In this document: piece by piece, positions 30 through 32,328 of the stretch
Layout of the letters: every line of letters begins with the position of its first letter
Position numbering within the stretch: the first letter of the stretch is position 1
Origin: Vectrevirus T147P1
Direction: 5' to 3' (one strand)
Sequence record: OZ035797.1
Length of the DNA: 43,709 nucleotides
Notes under the pieces: generated by a model
The model's input: only the letters and a program-made list of their open reading frames with translations
Told to the model about the DNA's origin: nothing
Database searches by the model: none
Translations under genes and position numbers: made by a program

Positions 30-329
30 GTGAGCGTACACAATAAACATGCAGCTACAGAGGATGAGGTTGGCATTCTGCATGGTGCTATTACCAAAAT
101 CTTCAATAAGAAAGCACAGGCAATACTGGACACTATAGAAGAAGACCCTGATGCAGCATTACATTTAGTGTCTGGTAAGGATATTGGTGCGATGTGTAAG
201 TGGGTTCTTGATAACGGCATTACCGCCACACCTGCTGCACAGCAGGAAGAGTCCAAGTTATCTAAGCGCCTCAAGGCTATCCGAGAGGCATCCAGTGGTA
301 AGATAATTCAATTCACTAAGGAGGATTGA
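30..329 (+). CDS. terminase small subunit (gp18-like); true 5' end uncertain
   Basis: 99-aa ORF (GTG start) directly upstream of and overlapping the large terminase start; frame stays open back to window position 1; size and position match T7/SP6-like small terminase. Confidence 0.5.
   Translation: MSVHNKHAATEDEVGILHGAITKIFNKKAQAILDTIEEDPDAALHLVSGKDIGAMCKWVLDNGITATPAAQQEESKLSKRLKAIREASSGKIIQFTKED
124..144 (+). promoter_or_regulatory. partial phage-promoter-like sequence inside small terminase gene
   Basis: TACTGGACACTATAGAAGAAG matches consensus from -15 to +6 but lacks the upstream ATT. Confidence 0.3.
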
Positions 330-2227
330 TGGCTAAGGCAAGAGAATCACAAGCGGAGGCTCTTGCCAGATGGGAGATGCTACAGGAGTTACAGCAGACC
401 TTTCCTTACACAGCGGAAGGTTTGCTTCTCTTTGCAGATACAGTTATTCATAACTTAATTGCAGGCAACCCTCATCTGATTCGTATGCAGGCGGATATCT
501 TGAAGTTCCTATTTTACGGACACAAGTACCGCCTCATCGAAGCGCCTCGTGGTATCGCTAAGACAACACTATCAGCAATCTATACGGTATTCCGTATTAT
601 TCATGAACCGCATAAGCGTATCATGGTTGTGTCCCAAAACGCCAAGCGAGCAGAGGAAATCGCAGGTTGGGTAGTTAAAATCTTCCGTGGCTTAGACTTT
701 CTTGAGTTTATGCTGCCGGATATCTACGCTGGGGACCGTGCATCCGTTAAGGCGTTTGAGATTCATTACACCCTACGTGGCAGTGATAAGTCTCCTTCTG
801 TATCATGTTACTCAATCGAAGCAGGTATGCAGGGTGCTCGTGCTGATATTATTCTAGCGGATGACGTAGAGTCGATGCAGAATGCTCGTACGGCAGCGGG
901 CCGTGCCTTGCTTGAGGAACTGACTAAGGAGTTTGAATCTATCAACCAGTTTGGGGATATCATTTACCTTGGTACACCTCAGAACGTAAACTCTATCTAC
1001 AACAACCTACCTGCTCGTGGTTACTCTGTTCGTATCTGGACTGCGCGTTACCCTTCAGTAGAGCAAGAGCAATGTTATGGCGACTTCCTTGCACCTATGA
1101 TTGTTCAAGATATGAAGGACAACCCAGCACTTCGCTCAGGGTACGGGTTGGATGGTAATAGTGGTGCACCTTGTGCCCCTGAAATGTATGATGATGAAGT
1201 CCTGATTGAGAAGGAAATCTCTCAGGGTGCTGCTAAGTTCCAGCTTCAGTTCATGCTTAACACTCGCATGATGGATGCTGACAGATACCCATTACGCCTG
1301 AACAATCTAATCTTCACCTCGTTTGGTACAGAGGAAGTCCCTGTGATGCCTACGTGGAGTAATGATTCCATAAACATCATTGGTGATGCACCTAAGTATG
1401 GTAACAAGCCTACGGATTTCATGTACAGACCTGTAGCTCGCCCATACGAATGGGGTGCTGTCTCCCGCAAGATTATGTATATTGACCCTGCGGGTGGTGG
1501 TAAGAACGGAGATGAGACGGGTGTAGCCATAGTATTCCTGCACGGCACATTCATTTATGTGTATCAGTGCTTTGGTGTACCTGGCGGATACCGAGAGTCG
1601 TCCCTGAATCGCATTGTGCAGGCCGCAAAGCAGGCGGGTGTTAAAGAGGTATTCATTGAGAAGAACTTTGGTCATGGCGCGTTTGAGGCGGTAATTAAGC
1701 CGTACTTTGAACGAGAGTGGCCTGTAACTCTGGAAGAGGATTACGCCACCGGACAGAAAGAGTTGCGTATCATTGAGACGCTGGAGCCGCTCATGGCAGC
1801 CCATAGGCTTATCTTCAATGCAGAGATGGTGAAGTCAGACTTTGAGTCGGTACAGCACTATCCGCTTGAACTACGCATGTCCTACAGTCTTTTCAATCAA
1901 ATGTCGAACATAACGATTGAGAAGAACAGCCTCCGGCACGATGACCGCCTAGACGCCCTGTATGGCGCTATACGGCAATTAACTTCTCAGATAGACTATG
2001 ACGAGGTTACACGGATTAATCGCCTCAGAGCGCAGGAGATGCGCGATTACATCCATGCTATGAACACACCTCATCTACGCAGGGCAATGCTATATGGAGA
2101 TTACGGTACTGAGCGAAGAGTGACCAACACTTCCGTAGCGATGCAGCAGCGAGTTTACGGACAGAACTACCGAAATAAATCGGCAAGCAGAAATACACTT
2201 TCTGCAAGGATTTCAAGGACTTATTAA
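326..2227 (+). CDS. terminase large subunit (gp19-like)
   Basis: 633-aa ORF; ATPase-like segment PRGIAKTT and acidic ILADDVES, nuclease-like segment YIDPAGGGKNGDETG; follows small terminase with 4-nt overlap. Confidence 0.9.
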   Translation: MMAKARESQAEALARWEMLQELQQTFPYTAEGLLLFADTVIHNLIAGNPHLIRMQADILKFLFYGHKYRLIEAPRGIAKTTLSAIYTVFRIIHEPHKRIMVVSQNAKRAEEIAGWVVKIFRGLDFLEFMLPDIYAGDRASVKAFEIHYTLRGSDKSPSVSCYSIEAGMQGARADIILADDVESMQNARTAAGRALLEELTKEFESINQFGDIIYLGTPQNVNSIYNNLPARGYSVRIWTARYPSVEQEQCYGDFLAPMIVQDMKDNPALRSGYGLDGNSGAPCAPEMYDDEVLIEKEISQGAAKFQLQFMLNTRMMDADRYPLRLNNLIFTSFGTEEVPVMPTWSNDSINIIGDAPKYGNKPTDFMYRPVARPYEWGAVSRKIMYIDPAGGGKNGDETGVAIVFLHGTFIYVYQCFGVPGGYRESSLNRIVQAAKQAGVKEVFIEKNFGHGAFEAVIKPYFEREWPVTLEEDYATGQKELRIIETLEPLMAAHRLIFNAEMVKSDFESVQHYPLELRMSYSLFNQMSNITIEKNSLRHDDRLDALYGAIRQLTSQIDYDEVTRINRLRAQEMRDYIHAMNTPHLRRAMLYGDYGTERRVTNTSVAMQQRVYGQNYRNKSASRNTLSARISRTY

Positions 2228-2247
2228 TTACTGGACACTATAGAAGG
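2226..2247 (+). promoter_or_regulatory. phage RNAP promoter (phiOR-like, overlaps terminase stop)
   Basis: AATTACTGGACACTATAGAAGG, match to the window-wide consensus. Confidence 0.7.
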
Positions 2248-2384
2248 AAGGCCCAGATAATAAGATAAAATAATAGGTAATATATAGGTTAACCTAGGTT
2301 ATATAGGTATGCCTTAGTATGGGTGTACTCCTGTACACCCTATTCCTTACTACCTTACTATATTTACATAATAGGAGAGAGACA

Positions 2385-2663
2385 ATGGCTAATGATTATA
2401 GTAGTCAACCATTAACAGGTAAGTCTAAGAGAAAGCAGGTACAACCTGTAAGTGAAGAACTAATGCTTCCGGTACTCAAAAAAGAGGAAGTTAGTAAGAA
2501 AAGCAATGTTATTAATGATGCCACCAAATCAGGTAAACAGAAAGGGGCCATGGTGTGCCTTGAAGTGGAAGGTGGTGTATTGAAGATTGCTATCGCGGTT
2601 GATGGCAAAGAAGATTCAGAGTGGAAGTTAGTAACAGTGGAACCAACTGTTAACCCAGTTTAA
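2385..2663 (+). CDS. hypothetical small protein, paralog A of tandem pair
   Basis: ATG at 2385 preceded by AGGAGAGAGA; shares SGKQKGAMVxLE...IAxA core with the next ORF; the track ORF from 2319 has a hydrophobic N-extension without SD. Confidence 0.5.
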   Translation: MANDYSSQPLTGKSKRKQVQPVSEELMLPVLKKEEVSKKSNVINDATKSGKQKGAMVCLEVEGGVLKIAIAVDGKEDSEWKLVTVEPTVNPV

Positions 2664-2681
2664 GATAAGGAGGAAGATTAC

Positions 2682-2972
2682 ATGGCTAAATATGGTACTA
2701 CAGGTTCTGTTACTGGTCAGGCTTTTCGAGTAAAAGCAGTACAAACTATTGCAACGGCAATCCCGATGCCTGTTGTTAAAGAAGCAGACCTTAAGAGTAA
2801 AGACCACCCTATCAACATCAAACATTTATCAGGTAAACAGAAAGGTGCAATGGTTGCTCTTGAGAAAGGTGACACAACCCTGCATATTGCTGTTGCACGT
2901 GGCAGTGAACCAACAGACCCTTGGGATGTAACTGGTAGGGAAGAGGAAGCTGTTACTCCAGCAGGGGTATAA
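2682..2972 (+). CDS. hypothetical small protein, paralog B of tandem pair
   Basis: ATG preceded by TAAGGAGGAAG; 96 aa; motif SGKQKGAMVALE shared with the upstream ORF. Confidence 0.55.
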   Translation: MAKYGTTGSVTGQAFRVKAVQTIATAIPMPVVKEADLKSKDHPINIKHLSGKQKGAMVALEKGDTTLHIAVARGSEPTDPWDVTGREEEAVTPAGV

Positions 2973-2974
2973 TA

Positions 2975-3319
2975 ATGCTTAATAAATACTTCAAGCGTAA
3001 AGAGTTTGCTTGCCGTTGTGGCTGCGGTGCATCCACTGTTGATGCTGAATTACTACAGGTAGTAACAGATGTGCGTGAGCACTTTGGTTCTCCTGTAGTT
3101 ATCACTTCGGGGCATCGCTGTGCTAAGCACAATGCTAATGTAGGAGGAGCTAAGAACTCCATGCATCTTACTGGTAAGGCTGCTGACATTAAGGTACGAG
3201 GCATCTTACCTTCTGATGTACATAAGTATCTTACTGATAAGTACCAAGGCAAATATGGGATTGGTAAGTATAACTCCTTTACTCATATTGATGTACGTGA
3301 CGGGTGTGCACGATGGTAG
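2975..3319 (+). CDS. endolysin, peptidase M15-type zinc peptidase (VanY / L-Ala-D-Glu peptidase-like)
   Basis: 114 aa; FACRCGCG, SGHRCAKHN, MHLTGKAAD and FTHIDVRD match the zinc-binding signature of small M15 phage endolysins. Confidence 0.8.
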   Translation: MLNKYFKRKEFACRCGCGASTVDAELLQVVTDVREHFGSPVVITSGHRCAKHNANVGGAKNSMHLTGKAADIKVRGILPSDVHKYLTDKYQGKYGIGKYNSFTHIDVRDGCARW

Positions 3320-3427
3320 GTTGTGTTGCATGGTGTGAACGCATGGTTGCTAAGGCTTCAGAGGAAGGCAACTATGAAGATTGGCAGAACTACTCAACTT
3401 TATTAGCTCAATGGAAAGGGAGATGCA

Positions 3428-5973: not shown

Positions 5974-7686
5974 ATGCTTCAAAGATTAAGTGCTTACTTG
6001 GTGAAGTACAAGAGTAAACTAACAGGTACTATTGAGCGCCTGCTATCTGATAAACTATCGGATACAATAGATGTTGCGGATTTTGGAGTTAATCCATCTT
6101 CTAATGACAACAGGCAAGCCCTTCAAGCTGCATTCAATGCGGTCAGATTTCTAGGCGGAGGTACTGTATCAGTCACTAAAGCTGGCGAATATAAACTCAG
6201 TGGTACTGTTGAGATATTTGCTAATACACACTTCAAGGTTGCTAAAGGTGTAACATTTGTACGTGACTACGAAACAGGAGATACGCTATTCAGATTATCA
6301 CAAGGGCAAGCTAGTAATGTAACAGTCAGTGGAGGTGTCTATGAAGGCAATGGTCACATTAAAGGAGATACACCTTTTGTAGTATTTGCATCTACTAGTA
6401 ATAATGATTTGAAGTTTGAAGGCATAACAGTTAACAATGTAGTGGACTACCACGCCATAGATTTAGCAGATTGGAACAACGTAGTTATTCGTGATTGTAA
6501 GTTCCTAGGGTTTAAGAATACAGGCAGTCGTAACTTCTCAGAGGCTATACAGTTAGACCCAGGACTTATTACAGTAGGTCGCTATGTGCAGTCTAGTGGT
6601 TTACTGGTAGAGAATTGCTATGCTGGCCCAAACCTTGATTCTGGATTTGGCGGGTATGGTGCTCTAGTAGGAAATCATGCATCAGCTTATGGTGTTCAAG
6701 ATAACAACATTAGAATCCTAAATTGCACTACAGATGGTGCGCTCTTTGCAGGTGTACGTGTATTTAACTGGAAAAACTGGACAGTACGTGGTTGCACCTT
6801 TAGAAACTCTAATGCAAGAGGTGTTCATGTTACACCTGTCTCCTCTCAAACTAAACCGCAAGGAACTCGACAAGGCAGTGTTGTAGATTGTACTTTTGAT
6901 GGCGTAAGAACACCAGTGCTAATTGCGGCACCATCTTGGCCTTTTACCGATATTAGTGACATTTGGCATGACCATATTGAAATTTCTAATAATACTATGA
7001 TCCTCACAGAGGATGTATCCTATGGTGTAGATGCAAGGTGGTGTAAGAATTTAATTGTAAAAGGTAATACAGGCTCTGGTGGCTTAGGGTTAATCGGTTT
7101 ACGCTTTGGGACAAAATACCACATCGAAGGTAATACTTGGGAAAACGGAAGAGGTAGTGGGATTTGGTTAGGTGAGTCTGATGCTGCTACATTCATTGGT
7201 ACTGGCTTATCGGGCGAAGGTATACTTAGTCGTAATATCCTCTCTAAATTAGGGCAATATGGTATTCATGTAAACTGCAAGGTTGGCGGTCTAGTGATTA
7301 AGGCTAATAATATGAAGGAAGTATCTACAGCTGAAGCAGGTAGGCACTTCATTAGCATAGACACAGGAGCTAACAACATCCTAGTAGAAGGTAATATTGG
7401 AGTAGATGGAGAAAGCCCTAACAAGCCAAGCCTTGGTATTCGTGTTACTTCTTCTTGCTCCAATATTAAACTAATTGGCAATGATTGCTATGGTACGCAA
7501 GCACCTCAGAATAACCAAGGAGTCGGTTCTAGTACGGTGATTGTTTATGGACTAAATGGTAACCCTACAACTTTAGGCGTAGGTGCACCTGTAGGCTCTT
7601 TAGCAACTGATATCAATGGGTCTGGTGGTAGTACATTGTACGTTAAAGAATCTGGTACATCTGCTCAAGGTTGGGTTGCAAAGTAG
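5974..7686 (+). CDS. tailspike protein 2, pectate-lyase-like beta-helix depolymerase
   Basis: 570 aa after AAAAGGAGG; N-terminal IDVADFGVNPSSNDNRQALQAAF resembles the pectate-lyase-3 motif of capsule depolymerases; Gly/Asn-rich repeats. Confidence 0.75.
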   Translation: MLQRLSAYLVKYKSKLTGTIERLLSDKLSDTIDVADFGVNPSSNDNRQALQAAFNAVRFLGGGTVSVTKAGEYKLSGTVEIFANTHFKVAKGVTFVRDYETGDTLFRLSQGQASNVTVSGGVYEGNGHIKGDTPFVVFASTSNNDLKFEGITVNNVVDYHAIDLADWNNVVIRDCKFLGFKNTGSRNFSEAIQLDPGLITVGRYVQSSGLLVENCYAGPNLDSGFGGYGALVGNHASAYGVQDNNIRILNCTTDGALFAGVRVFNWKNWTVRGCTFRNSNARGVHVTPVSSQTKPQGTRQGSVVDCTFDGVRTPVLIAAPSWPFTDISDIWHDHIEISNNTMILTEDVSYGVDARWCKNLIVKGNTGSGGLGLIGLRFGTKYHIEGNTWENGRGSGIWLGESDAATFIGTGLSGEGILSRNILSKLGQYGIHVNCKVGGLVIKANNMKEVSTAEAGRHFISIDTGANNILVEGNIGVDGESPNKPSLGIRVTSSCSNIKLIGNDCYGTQAPQNNQGVGSSTVIVYGLNGNPTTLGVGAPVGSLATDINGSGGSTLYVKESGTSAQGWVAK

Positions 7687-31119: not shown

Positions 31120-32328
31120 ATGTCTACACCGAATACTCTGACTAACGTTGCTGTATCTGCATCCGGTGAGGTTGACAGCCTTCTCATTGAGAAGTTTAAT
31201 GGTAAGGTCAATGAGCAGTACCTGAAAGGTGAGAACATTCTGTCCTACTTTGATGTACAAACTGTTACTGGCACTAACACAGTGAGCAACAAATATTTGG
31301 GCGAAACTGAGTTGCAGGTGCTAGCACCGGGTCAGTCTCCTAATGCCACCCCTACTCAGGCGGATAAAAACCAGTTGGTAATTGATACCACTGTCATTGC
31401 TCGTAACACTGTGGCTCACATCCACGATGTACAAGGTGACATCGATAGCCTGAAACCAAAACTGGCTATGAACCAAGCCAAGCAACTGAAACGTCTGGAA
31501 GACCAGATGGCAATTCAGCAGATGCTGTTAGGCGGTATTGCTAACACCAAGGCCAAACGTAACAAGCCGCGTGTTAAAGGGCATGGCTTCTCTATCAACG
31601 TTAACGTAACTGAGAGTGAAGCACTGGCTAACCCTCAGTATGTTATGGCTGCGGTAGAGTATGCTCTGGAGCAACAGCTTGAGCAGGAAGTGGACATCTC
31701 TGATGTAGCTATCATGATGCCGTGGAAGTTCTTCAATGCTCTGCGTGATGCAGACCGAATTGTAGATAAGACTTACACTATCAGCCAGTCTGGTGCAACC
31801 ATTAATGGCTTCGTTCTCTCTTCTTATAACTGCCCTGTGATCCCGTCTAACCGATTCCCTACCTTCGCTCAGAATCAGGCTCACCACCTGTTGTCTAATG
31901 AAGATAACGGCTATCGTTATGACCCTATCGCAGAGATGAATGGTGCAGTTGCTGTTCTGTTCACTGCCGACGCACTGCTGGTGGGTCGTACCATTGAAGT
32001 GACTGGTGACATCTTCTATGAGAAGAAAGAGAAGACTTATTACATTGACACCTTCATGGCTGAGGGTGCAATCCCTGACCGTTGGGAAGCAGTGTCTGTA
32101 GTTACCACTAAACGTAATGCAACTACTGGTGCTGCTGAAGGTTCTGGTGATGATCACGCAACCGTACTGGCTCGTGCACAGCGTAAGGCTGTATATGTCA
32201 AAACCGAAGGTGCTGCGGCTGCATTCTCTGCTGCCCCAGCAGGTATCCAAGCGGAAGACCTTGTAGCGGCGGTACGTGCTGTAATGGCAAATGACATCAA
32301 GCCGACTGCAATGAAACCTGCTGAGTAA
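31120..32328 (+). CDS. major capsid protein, gp10-like
   Basis: 402 aa; strong promoter and SD upstream, hairpin terminator downstream; position after scaffold. Confidence 0.85.
   Translation: MSTPNTLTNVAVSASGEVDSLLIEKFNGKVNEQYLKGENILSYFDVQTVTGTNTVSNKYLGETELQVLAPGQSPNATPTQADKNQLVIDTTVIARNTVAHIHDVQGDIDSLKPKLAMNQAKQLKRLEDQMAIQQMLLGGIANTKAKRNKPRVKGHGFSINVNVTESEALANPQYVMAAVEYALEQQLEQEVDISDVAIMMPWKFFNALRDADRIVDKTYTISQSGATINGFVLSSYNCPVIPSNRFPTFAQNQAHHLLSNEDNGYRYDPIAEMNGAVAVLFTADALLVGRTIEVTGDIFYEKKEKTYYIDTFMAEGAIPDRWEAVSVVTTKRNATTGAAEGSGDDHATVLARAQRKAVYVKTEGAAAAFSAAPAGIQAEDLVAAVRAVMANDIKPTAMKPAE

Follow-up and report, generated by a model that had tools for sequence, protein, structure and literature searches.

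Paralogous small proteins encoded behind the terminase gene of a K1-5-like coliphage may be trimeric capsid-surface anchors

The Vectrevirus T147P1 sequence record OZ035797.1, analysed here over its full 43,709 bp (the window), represents the whole genome, circularly permuted, of a K1-5-like coliphage (Autographiviridae, Molineuxvirinae, Vectrevirus). Downstream of its large terminase (TerL) gene lie two short genes on the plus strand, at 2385-2663 and 2682-2972, whose products of 92 and 96 residues are paralogues and correspond to gp41 and gp42 of phage K1-5. Our results lead us to propose, with moderate confidence, that these proteins belong to a family of trimeric capsid-surface anchors and that both are anchor-only “cement” forms. 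We envision a scenario in which a β-rich domain of ~85 residues assembles in threes and binds the outside of the T=7 capsid as decoration at three-fold or quasi-three-fold positions, so that the domain would be a trimerising anchor that attaches to the major capsid protein (encoded at 31120-32328) and not to the tail. A conserved N-terminal arm with the pattern TG..R.K, predicted to be disordered, would become ordered on binding. In this model gp41 and gp42 could form a heterotrimer fitted to asymmetric quasi-three-fold sites or distinct homotrimers at different classes of site, an arrangement for which the two decoration proteins of phage PhiM1 provide an analogue.

The successive steps from surface anchor to capsid and from capsid to cement are ones that we infer. 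Placement on the capsid is suggested by a natural chimera between the family domain and the head fibre of phi29, by the predominance of anchor-only members and by the precedent of decoration proteins in phages PhiM1 and Ar-KM. Assembly in threes is suggested by the number of repeats in fused family members, by the predicted model of one of these (P0209) and by the trimeric nature of the fusion partners (the Sf6 knob and the phi29 fibre). A preliminary description of the pair, made from the DNA sequence alone, had offered capsid decoration, superinfection exclusion, a lysis accessory and an anti-defence accessory as speculative roles. The first is the one that the evidence ranks highest; the other three find no support, as neither protein has a hydrophobic segment or matches a lysis, defence or other named family.

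Architecture of the family and its placement on the virion

An exhaustive profile search of 1.84 billion representatives returned 233 clusters at E ≤ 1e-3, and from the best 150 hits the 145 representatives that were newly retrieved served for a count of domain architectures. Most (90/145) are single-domain proteins of ~90 residues. In about 15-20 representatives, and in several isolated phages, the domain is N-terminal with another module behind it. The clearest of these fusions is gp450 of Erwinia phage phiEa1H (identical in Era103), whose residues 86-232 match the shaft and tip of the phi29 head fibre gp8.5 (PDB 3qc7, E 2e-4; 6qvk, E 1.6e-3). The match begins at residue 116 of gp8.5, the related region spanning residues 116-271, and the family domain thus stands in place of the N-terminal part of the fibre. 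In published phi29 structures that part is the capsid-binding base, and gp8.5 is a trimer located at quasi-three-fold positions of the capsid. gp450 also matches PHROG 4366, “head fiber protein” (E 4.5e-11), and the capsid decoration protein “B2 Dec gp45” (9d82; E 0.015), with which it has the motif ASTATDVA..V.DLN.LI in common. Other long members carry immunoglobulin (Ig)-like or Hoc-like domains (Klebsiella phage FBKp16 gp051 and P0284), the trimeric, TNF-like knob of the Sf6 tail needle (P0275 and P0345; PF16532, E 1.7e-30; PDB 3rwn, E 4e-28) or uncharacterised C-terminal domains (CrRp3 gp16 and relatives, PHROG 32357; P0282 and P0312, PHROG 17779; P0278; P0335). Wherever the contig is long enough to tell, a long member is accompanied by an anchor-only member in the same locus. 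Such a conserved N-terminal module with swappable trimeric or Ig-like distal modules is the signature of a virion-surface attachment domain.

In architecture, long family members resemble phi29 gp8.5, with a base at the N-terminus and a trimeric shaft and tip behind it, while the bases themselves have no detectable relationship in sequence or fold. The two proteins of the window end after the base domain and lack a shaft, which sets them apart from head fibres of the gp8.5 type.

The family also occurs as fused repeats. Three copies of the domain were detected in 25 of the 145 representatives, in proteins of about 260-300 residues (one, with a C-terminal extension, has 389), and about 15 more, of ~260-290 residues, have two detected repeats and a repeat-sized gap; none of the 145 has four or more copies. 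A third word-index homologue search, seeded with an alignment of triple repeats, was saturated and yielded 4 proteins only. The triple-repeat gene P0354 lies directly after TerL in a 44.8-kb T7-like contig and is therefore the positional equivalent of the separate family genes in other phages. Each of the repeats r1, r2 and r3 has its orthologue at the same position in other proteins (49%, 56% and 70% identity, respectively), and since like repeats are mutually closest across proteins, the three positions must have become specialised. P0292 joins a triple-repeat base to a C-terminal domain, and its locus also holds a plain triple-repeat gene. In a metagenomic T7-like phage (fetched locus L006, 6855-7456; also L007 and L008) a fourth family unit lies downstream of the triple-repeat gene. 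It is split over two frames near 7000-7010, with profile positions 15-48 in one and 49-86 in the other, and is followed by an extension of ~110 residues; it could be a frameshifted pseudogene, a sequencing artefact common to three assemblies from a single study or a case of programmed frameshifting.

Structure prediction is consistent with the idea that three domains make up one body. The AlphaFold2 model of the gp42 monomer has a mean predicted local distance difference test score (pLDDT) of 67, with residues 1-17 forming a disordered arm and a small β-sheet core behind it; Foldseek matches of this model to the RsmE N-domain and to SH2 were not significant. Because the model of gp42 alone was of low confidence, a natural triple-repeat homologue, P0209, was modelled as well. 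It reached a pLDDT of 89 and a predicted template modelling score (pTM) of 0.85, values that imply a single compact body built from three domains, and the pTM suggests that the repeats pack with pseudo-three-fold symmetry. Both models predict mainly β structure, with two short helices in each domain.

Known decoration systems resemble the family in logic rather than in fold. In cryo-electron microscopy structures of PhiM1, gp44 (an α-claw only) and gp43 (an α-claw with a “forearm”) decorate two-fold and quasi-two-fold axes as dimers, and in those of Ar-KM the decoration protein gp55 and the spike gp54 have a near-identical head-binding core, past residue 59 of which gp54 homologues diverge. 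These α-claw and α-paw pairs (PhiM1, Ar-KM, HRP29 and Buco) are, like the family described here, encoded by adjacent paralogous late genes with a common N-terminal core, and in both cases one protein is core-only and the other bears a variable, outward C-terminal domain. The α-claw and α-paw proteins, however, are helix-turn-helix dimers, whereas the family is β-rich and apparently assembles in threes; it lacks their four-helix-bundle dimer architecture and has no sequence match to the deposited PDB chains.

In the role proposed here, and in the logic of their stoichiometry, the two proteins can be likened to gpD of lambda and Dec of phage L. These are small trimers of ~10-14 kDa that occupy three-fold or quasi-three-fold sites on a T=7 capsid, and the N-terminal arm of gpD is ordered only on the capsid. 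The family has neither the β-tulip fold of gpD nor the OB-fold of Dec. A further parallel is Soc and Hoc of T4, a small anchor-type protein and a display protein with Ig domains that occupy one and the same capsid; some long family members have Hoc-like Ig domains. Soc and Hoc are mutually unrelated, whereas the short and long forms here have an anchor domain in common, and the family has no sequence or fold relationship to Soc.

Some modules of the long members are found on phage tails too, and the proteins could instead be associated with the tail or neck of the virion, the domain being a trimeric docking module that attaches either to the region of portal, adaptor and nozzle or to a tailspike adaptor of the gp37 type. 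In that case the long members would act as side fibres or whiskers, and the short ones would fill or stabilise docking sites. We consider this rather unlikely. In its favour, Ig-like domains and Sf6 tail-needle knobs are also typical of tail proteins; Foldseek also finds domain-level similarity, at a probability of about 1.0, to N-terminal regions of a phage pectate lyase, of a tailspike-like SGNH hydrolase and of a protein named “tail fiber protein”. A profile hidden Markov model (HMM) search of the tailspikes of the window and of the fetched relatives, however, found no match to the domain and no hidden copies. An anchor-only majority, present in one to three copies, is hard to fit to the fixed parts list of a T7-type tail, and in the phi29-like fusion the domain replaces exactly the base that binds the capsid.

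Several points weigh against the proposal of a capsid anchor. The trimeric state is predicted from repeat number, a model and the fusion partners, and capsid and tail or neck are not separable by sequence. The knob-bearing long member of locus L048 follows directly on a tailspike gene and is not beside the short member, and a note in the FBKp16 annotation, the annotators' guess, reads “possible neck whiskers protein”; both agree better with the tail, as does the domain-level resemblance to the pectate lyase and SGNH-hydrolase tailspike-like N-termini, which we would call weak. Searchable literature contained no virion proteomics or high-resolution capsid structure of SP6- or K1-5-like phages, the PDB contained no chain matching the family, and neither the PDB nor record annotations yielded a member with experimentally determined function or structure. 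Papers on Morganella phage MP2, phiRIO-1, PP99, phi-A318, KBNP1315, Pantoea phages and Acadevirus BigMira, like a meeting report, contain nothing on these genes, and those on Aeromonas phages and on GRNsp51 use the term “head fiber” in passing only. Nor does the strong ribosome-binding site of gp42, described below, speak to copy number, because many genes of the phage have strong ones.

If the capsid-anchor proposal is taken further, the family could be an unrecognised decoration fold that serves as a trimerising base in the SP6/K1-5 group and in marine and plant-pathogen relatives, with gp41 and gp42 as heterotrimeric cement. We advance this fuller version tentatively, as possible though less than an even prospect. 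The base would have been repeatedly split into two or three specialised paralogues or fused as a pseudo-trimer, perhaps as an adaptation to asymmetric quasi-three-fold sites, and the same base would act as a socket for the exchange of head fibres, Ig domains and knobs. To our knowledge, heterotrimeric cement has not been described for tailed-phage capsids.

Both genes are already known and annotated, and their tandem arrangement is no novelty. To judge from the PDB and the searchable literature, what is new is the recognition of the family as a three-fold module that also occurs as fused pseudo-trimers and to which head-fibre, Ig and knob modules are joined as to a base, with no solved structural relative. 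Should the family indeed anchor to the capsid surface, it would represent a new decoration fold for the T7 supergroup and a small, high-copy and naturally modular display scaffold for phage engineering, and a variable extra gene found between gp42 and the endolysin gene in some relatives would encode a head fibre with a possible influence on adhesion or host range.

The paralogous pair and its inherited enzyme name

The assignment of the two genes follows from their surroundings. Positions 2200-3400 of the window (1.2 kb) share 97-99% identity with several Vectrevirus records and 95% with K1-5, in which the equivalent stretch holds genes 40 (large terminase), 41, 42 and 43 (endolysin); the two open reading frames (ORFs) of the window are therefore K1-5 genes 41 and 42. 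The product of the first, 10.0 kDa with an isoelectric point of 7.8, differs from K1-5 gp41 by a single residue out of 92, and that of the second, 10.1 kDa with an isoelectric point of 8.1, is 96% identical to K1-5 gp42. Both consist of the anchor domain only. The same genes, in the same order, with the same promoter and the same position behind TerL, are present as gp41 and gp42 of K1-5 and K1E and as gp42 and gp43 of SP6.

That the two adjacent ORFs encode true paralogues with a common SGKQKGAMV core, as the preliminary description held, is confirmed. BLASTP aligns 31 identities over 87 positions (36%) with one gap (E 5e-14), and the Smith-Waterman score of 119 compares with 26.6 ± 4.9 (maximum 58) for 2000 shuffles (z = 19). 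The N-terminal halves were described as divergent, which is accurate in part; the homology nevertheless runs the full length of the proteins, beyond the core, and residues T11, G12 and P30 are among those that are invariant. In an alignment of 31 sequences of both types M1, T11, G12, P30, N45, S50-Q53, A56, A72 and W81 do not vary and R16 and K18 are almost invariant, and the family pattern TG..R.K ... N..SGKQ.GA.V ... A.G...W ... TP can be followed through both gp41 and gp42.

All homologues in this alignment begin at the position of MAND or MSNS. The list of ORFs made for the window starts the first gene at ATG 2319 (114 residues), which lies at the 5' edge of a hairpin at 2321-2340 and has no Shine-Dalgarno (SD) sequence. 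Because of these features and of the homologues' common start, 2385 is the right start of gp41, and the upstream extension, which is not conserved as coding sequence in relatives, is an artefact of ORF calling.

Both proteins are hydrophilic throughout (grand average of hydropathy -0.42 for gp41 and -0.28 for gp42), and their sequences contain no transmembrane segment, lipobox or signal peptide, features that would mark a holin, antiholin or spanin. Searches of Pfam, PHROG and NCBIfam found no lysis, defence or other named family.

The only name that the proteins carry is that of an enzyme. Profile and structure-prediction searches, which the preliminary description had proposed as checks, were fruitful for PHROG 2725 (E 9e-38 for gp41 and 6.7e-45 for gp42) and gave nothing useful from Pfam, NCBIfam, the PDB or Foldseek with the gp42 model. 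PHROG 2725, to which gp41 and gp42 of K1-5 and K1E and gp42 and gp43 of SP6 belong, is labelled “acetyl-CoA acetyltransferase”. The same product name stands in RefSeq for K1-5, SP6 and many relatives, a note in the K1E record calls gp42 a “putative Acetyl-CoA acetyltransferase”, and all other sources name family members “hypothetical protein”. A reading of the two proteins as true acetyl-CoA acetyltransferases (thiolases), or as pieces of such an enzyme, deserves virtually no credence; these inherited names and the K1E note are its sole support. Thiolases are proteins of ~390 residues with PF00108 and PF02803 domains and a catalytic Cys and His. gp41 and gp42 have 92-96 residues; Pfam gave no match to either protein at E ≤ 1 and NCBIfam no relevant one, comparison of the family profile with all PDB sequences at E ≤ 10 returned no thiolase, and fold searches returned none either. 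Two other matches from the sequence searches were treated as chance: an aldehyde dehydrogenase at E 0.97, and GroES at E 0.009, which scored 16 bits against a cutoff of 122 and was absent from the fold searches. The enzyme name is an annotation artefact. Literature on phage UAB_Phi78 repeats it and says nothing more on these genes, and through RefSeq and PHROGs it is spreading. SP6- and K1-5-like phages are model and therapeutic phages in which two conserved late genes thus carry a misleading name, and a neutral or structural name is warranted.

Distribution, age and rate of evolution

Conservation in related phages, the lack of which would have counted against the pair in the preliminary description, proved extensive. 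By tblastn the family occurs in 187 phage records, from phages of Escherichia, Klebsiella, Salmonella, Vibrio, Proteus, Erwinia, Pectobacterium, Pseudomonas and Aeromonas. Gene order was examined in the 45 fetched loci that include TerL, which come from Molineuxvirinae, Colwellvirinae and metagenomic T7-like phages. Family genes are downstream of a T7-type TerL in all 45, and the first of them starts at most about 0.8 kb from the TerL stop codon in 43 and 3.7 kb from it in the other 2. The gene that follows them is frequently not that of the endolysin. Of the position “between terminase and endolysin” given earlier, the terminase side thus describes a constant neighbour and the endolysin side an incidental one that is often not adjacent. 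An HMM search of the six-frame translation of T7 found no family member, in agreement with the earlier statement that the pair has no counterpart there.

The number of family genes varies between phages. Vibrio phage phi-A318 has one; K1-5, K1E and the window have two; POP72 has three separate genes; SP6 has two and a truncated third; and CrRp3, FBKp16 and several metagenomic Vectrevirus-like contigs have two short genes and a long one. The truncated gene of SP6 is gene 44 (fetched locus L002, 2798-3043), annotated as a “hypothetical protein” of 81 residues, and is a divergent member that matches profile positions 8-62 (E 4e-9). The long gene accounts for an insertion of ~700 bp in some megablast matches, which is absent from the window and from K1-5. 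At the place that corresponds to the junction of gp42 and the endolysin gene (2972-2975 in the window), Citrobacter phage CrRp3 (locus L014, 1787-2485) and several Vectrevirus-like contigs carry this extra gene of ~232 codons, whose product has an N-terminal family domain (E 1.7e-15) and the C-terminal domain of PHROG 32357. These comparisons reveal a presence/absence polymorphism of a putative fibre gene within Vectrevirus, and the window, like K1-5, has either lost the long fibre-bearing third member or never possessed it. In two metagenomic relatives (L016, 4591-5001; L006, 7551-7926) pairs of small predicted lipoproteins are encoded between or after the family genes; they have an N-terminal signal-like segment with a cysteine (LSAC, MAGC) and may be spanin-like or other lysis components.

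The pair is old. gp41 groups with SP6 gp42 (38% identity), POP72_048 (38%) and FBKp16_049 (44%), and gp42 with SP6 gp43 (53%), FBKp16_050 (49%) and POP72_050 (44%), so that gp41-type and gp42-type proteins form separate orthologous groups in Vectrevirus, SP6, Pectobacterium phages and Klebsiella phages. Since first genes group with first and second with second across genera, the pair predates the split of those genera. The earlier view of a tandem duplication is right about the paralogy of the two genes; as a local or recent event it does not hold, the pair being ancient and differentiated and appearing across phages as one to three genes or as a fused triple repeat.

In comparisons with relatives the ratio of nonsynonymous to synonymous substitution rates (dN/dS) was 0.21-0.57 for gp41, 0.09-0.30 for gp42, 0.06-0.23 for the endolysin and 0-0.15 for the C-terminus of TerL. 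Purifying selection acts on gp41 and gp42, but both change more quickly than TerL or the endolysin, a pattern to be expected of structural proteins that are exposed. Phage proteins that are small and evolve fast are also often counter-defence proteins, and the dN/dS of up to 0.57 for gp41 could be read in that way. On such a reading gp41 and gp42 would be non-structural late proteins of the cytoplasm: accessories of morphogenesis or packaging, or factors for lysis timing, anti-defence or host takeover. The constant position beside terminase genes, usually upstream of a lysis cassette, would suit this, as does the negative outcome of the literature search for virion proteomics. We nonetheless judge it quite improbable. 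Expression from a late promoter and the lack of hydrophobic or export signals and of named relatives speak against it, lysis genes are not constant neighbours, and recurrent fusion to display modules of extracellular type makes little sense for a cytoplasmic factor.

Promoter, leader and translation signals

gp41 and gp42 sit in the block of late structural and lysis genes and have a consensus late promoter of their own. The TerL gene of the window (329-2227) is intact, with its stop codon at 2225-2227, and the last base of this codon is the first base of a promoter of the K1-5/SP6 type for the phage RNA polymerase, ATTACTGGACACTATAGAAGG (2227-2247, plus strand). The promoter contains the core ACACTATAGAAG, which occurs at 11 sites in the window, all on the plus strand. 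It is conserved in K1-5, K1E, ACG-C91, CrRp3, Proteus phage Pm5460 and SP6, and the Pm5460 record annotates a promoter at the equivalent place. The phiOR-like promoter noted upstream of both genes in the preliminary description is thereby confirmed, phiOR of T7 being similarly placed ~100 nt past gene 19.

Between the promoter and gp41 lies a 5' leader of 137 nt (2248-2384, plus strand) that is AT-rich, non-coding and conserved. It contains four copies of TAGGT (at 2274, 2285, 2295 and 2304, spaced 9-11 nt apart) and the palindrome AGGTTAACCT (2286-2295). Its identity to SP6 and Pm5460 is 66-69%, as against 67-68% for the coding DNA of TerL and 54-60% for that of gp41. The leader RNA (2241-2400) folds no better than shuffled sequences (z = 0.14) and has no match in Rfam. 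It might be an array for protein binding, an origin-like AT-rich region or an attenuator.

Within the leader, a perfect 8-bp GC-rich hairpin, GGGTGTAC-TCCT-GTACACCC (2321-2340, plus strand), is followed by a pyrimidine-rich tract. It was picked up by a scan for terminator-like structures, is present in the minimum-free-energy fold and is identical among Vectrevirus relatives, and in the records of Klebsiella phage FBKp16 and Vibrio phage phi-A318 the corresponding position bears the annotation “terminator”. The succession of a promoter and a terminator-like hairpin suggests attenuation or stabilisation of the mRNA 5' end, and the hairpin may accordingly be a partial terminator or attenuator, or a 5' stabiliser.

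The SD sequence of gp42, AAGGAGG (2667-2673), has a duplex energy of -12.2 kcal/mol and ranks third among the 58 called genes, which bears out the strong SD reported earlier for the downstream copy; that of gp41, AGGAG (2373-2377), is moderate at -7.3 kcal/mol. Upstream of the pair, the annotation of phage K1E (locus L011, 1-1045) gives the large terminase gene as split (gene 40B) and places an inserted gene for a putative homing endonuclease, 40.5, within it.

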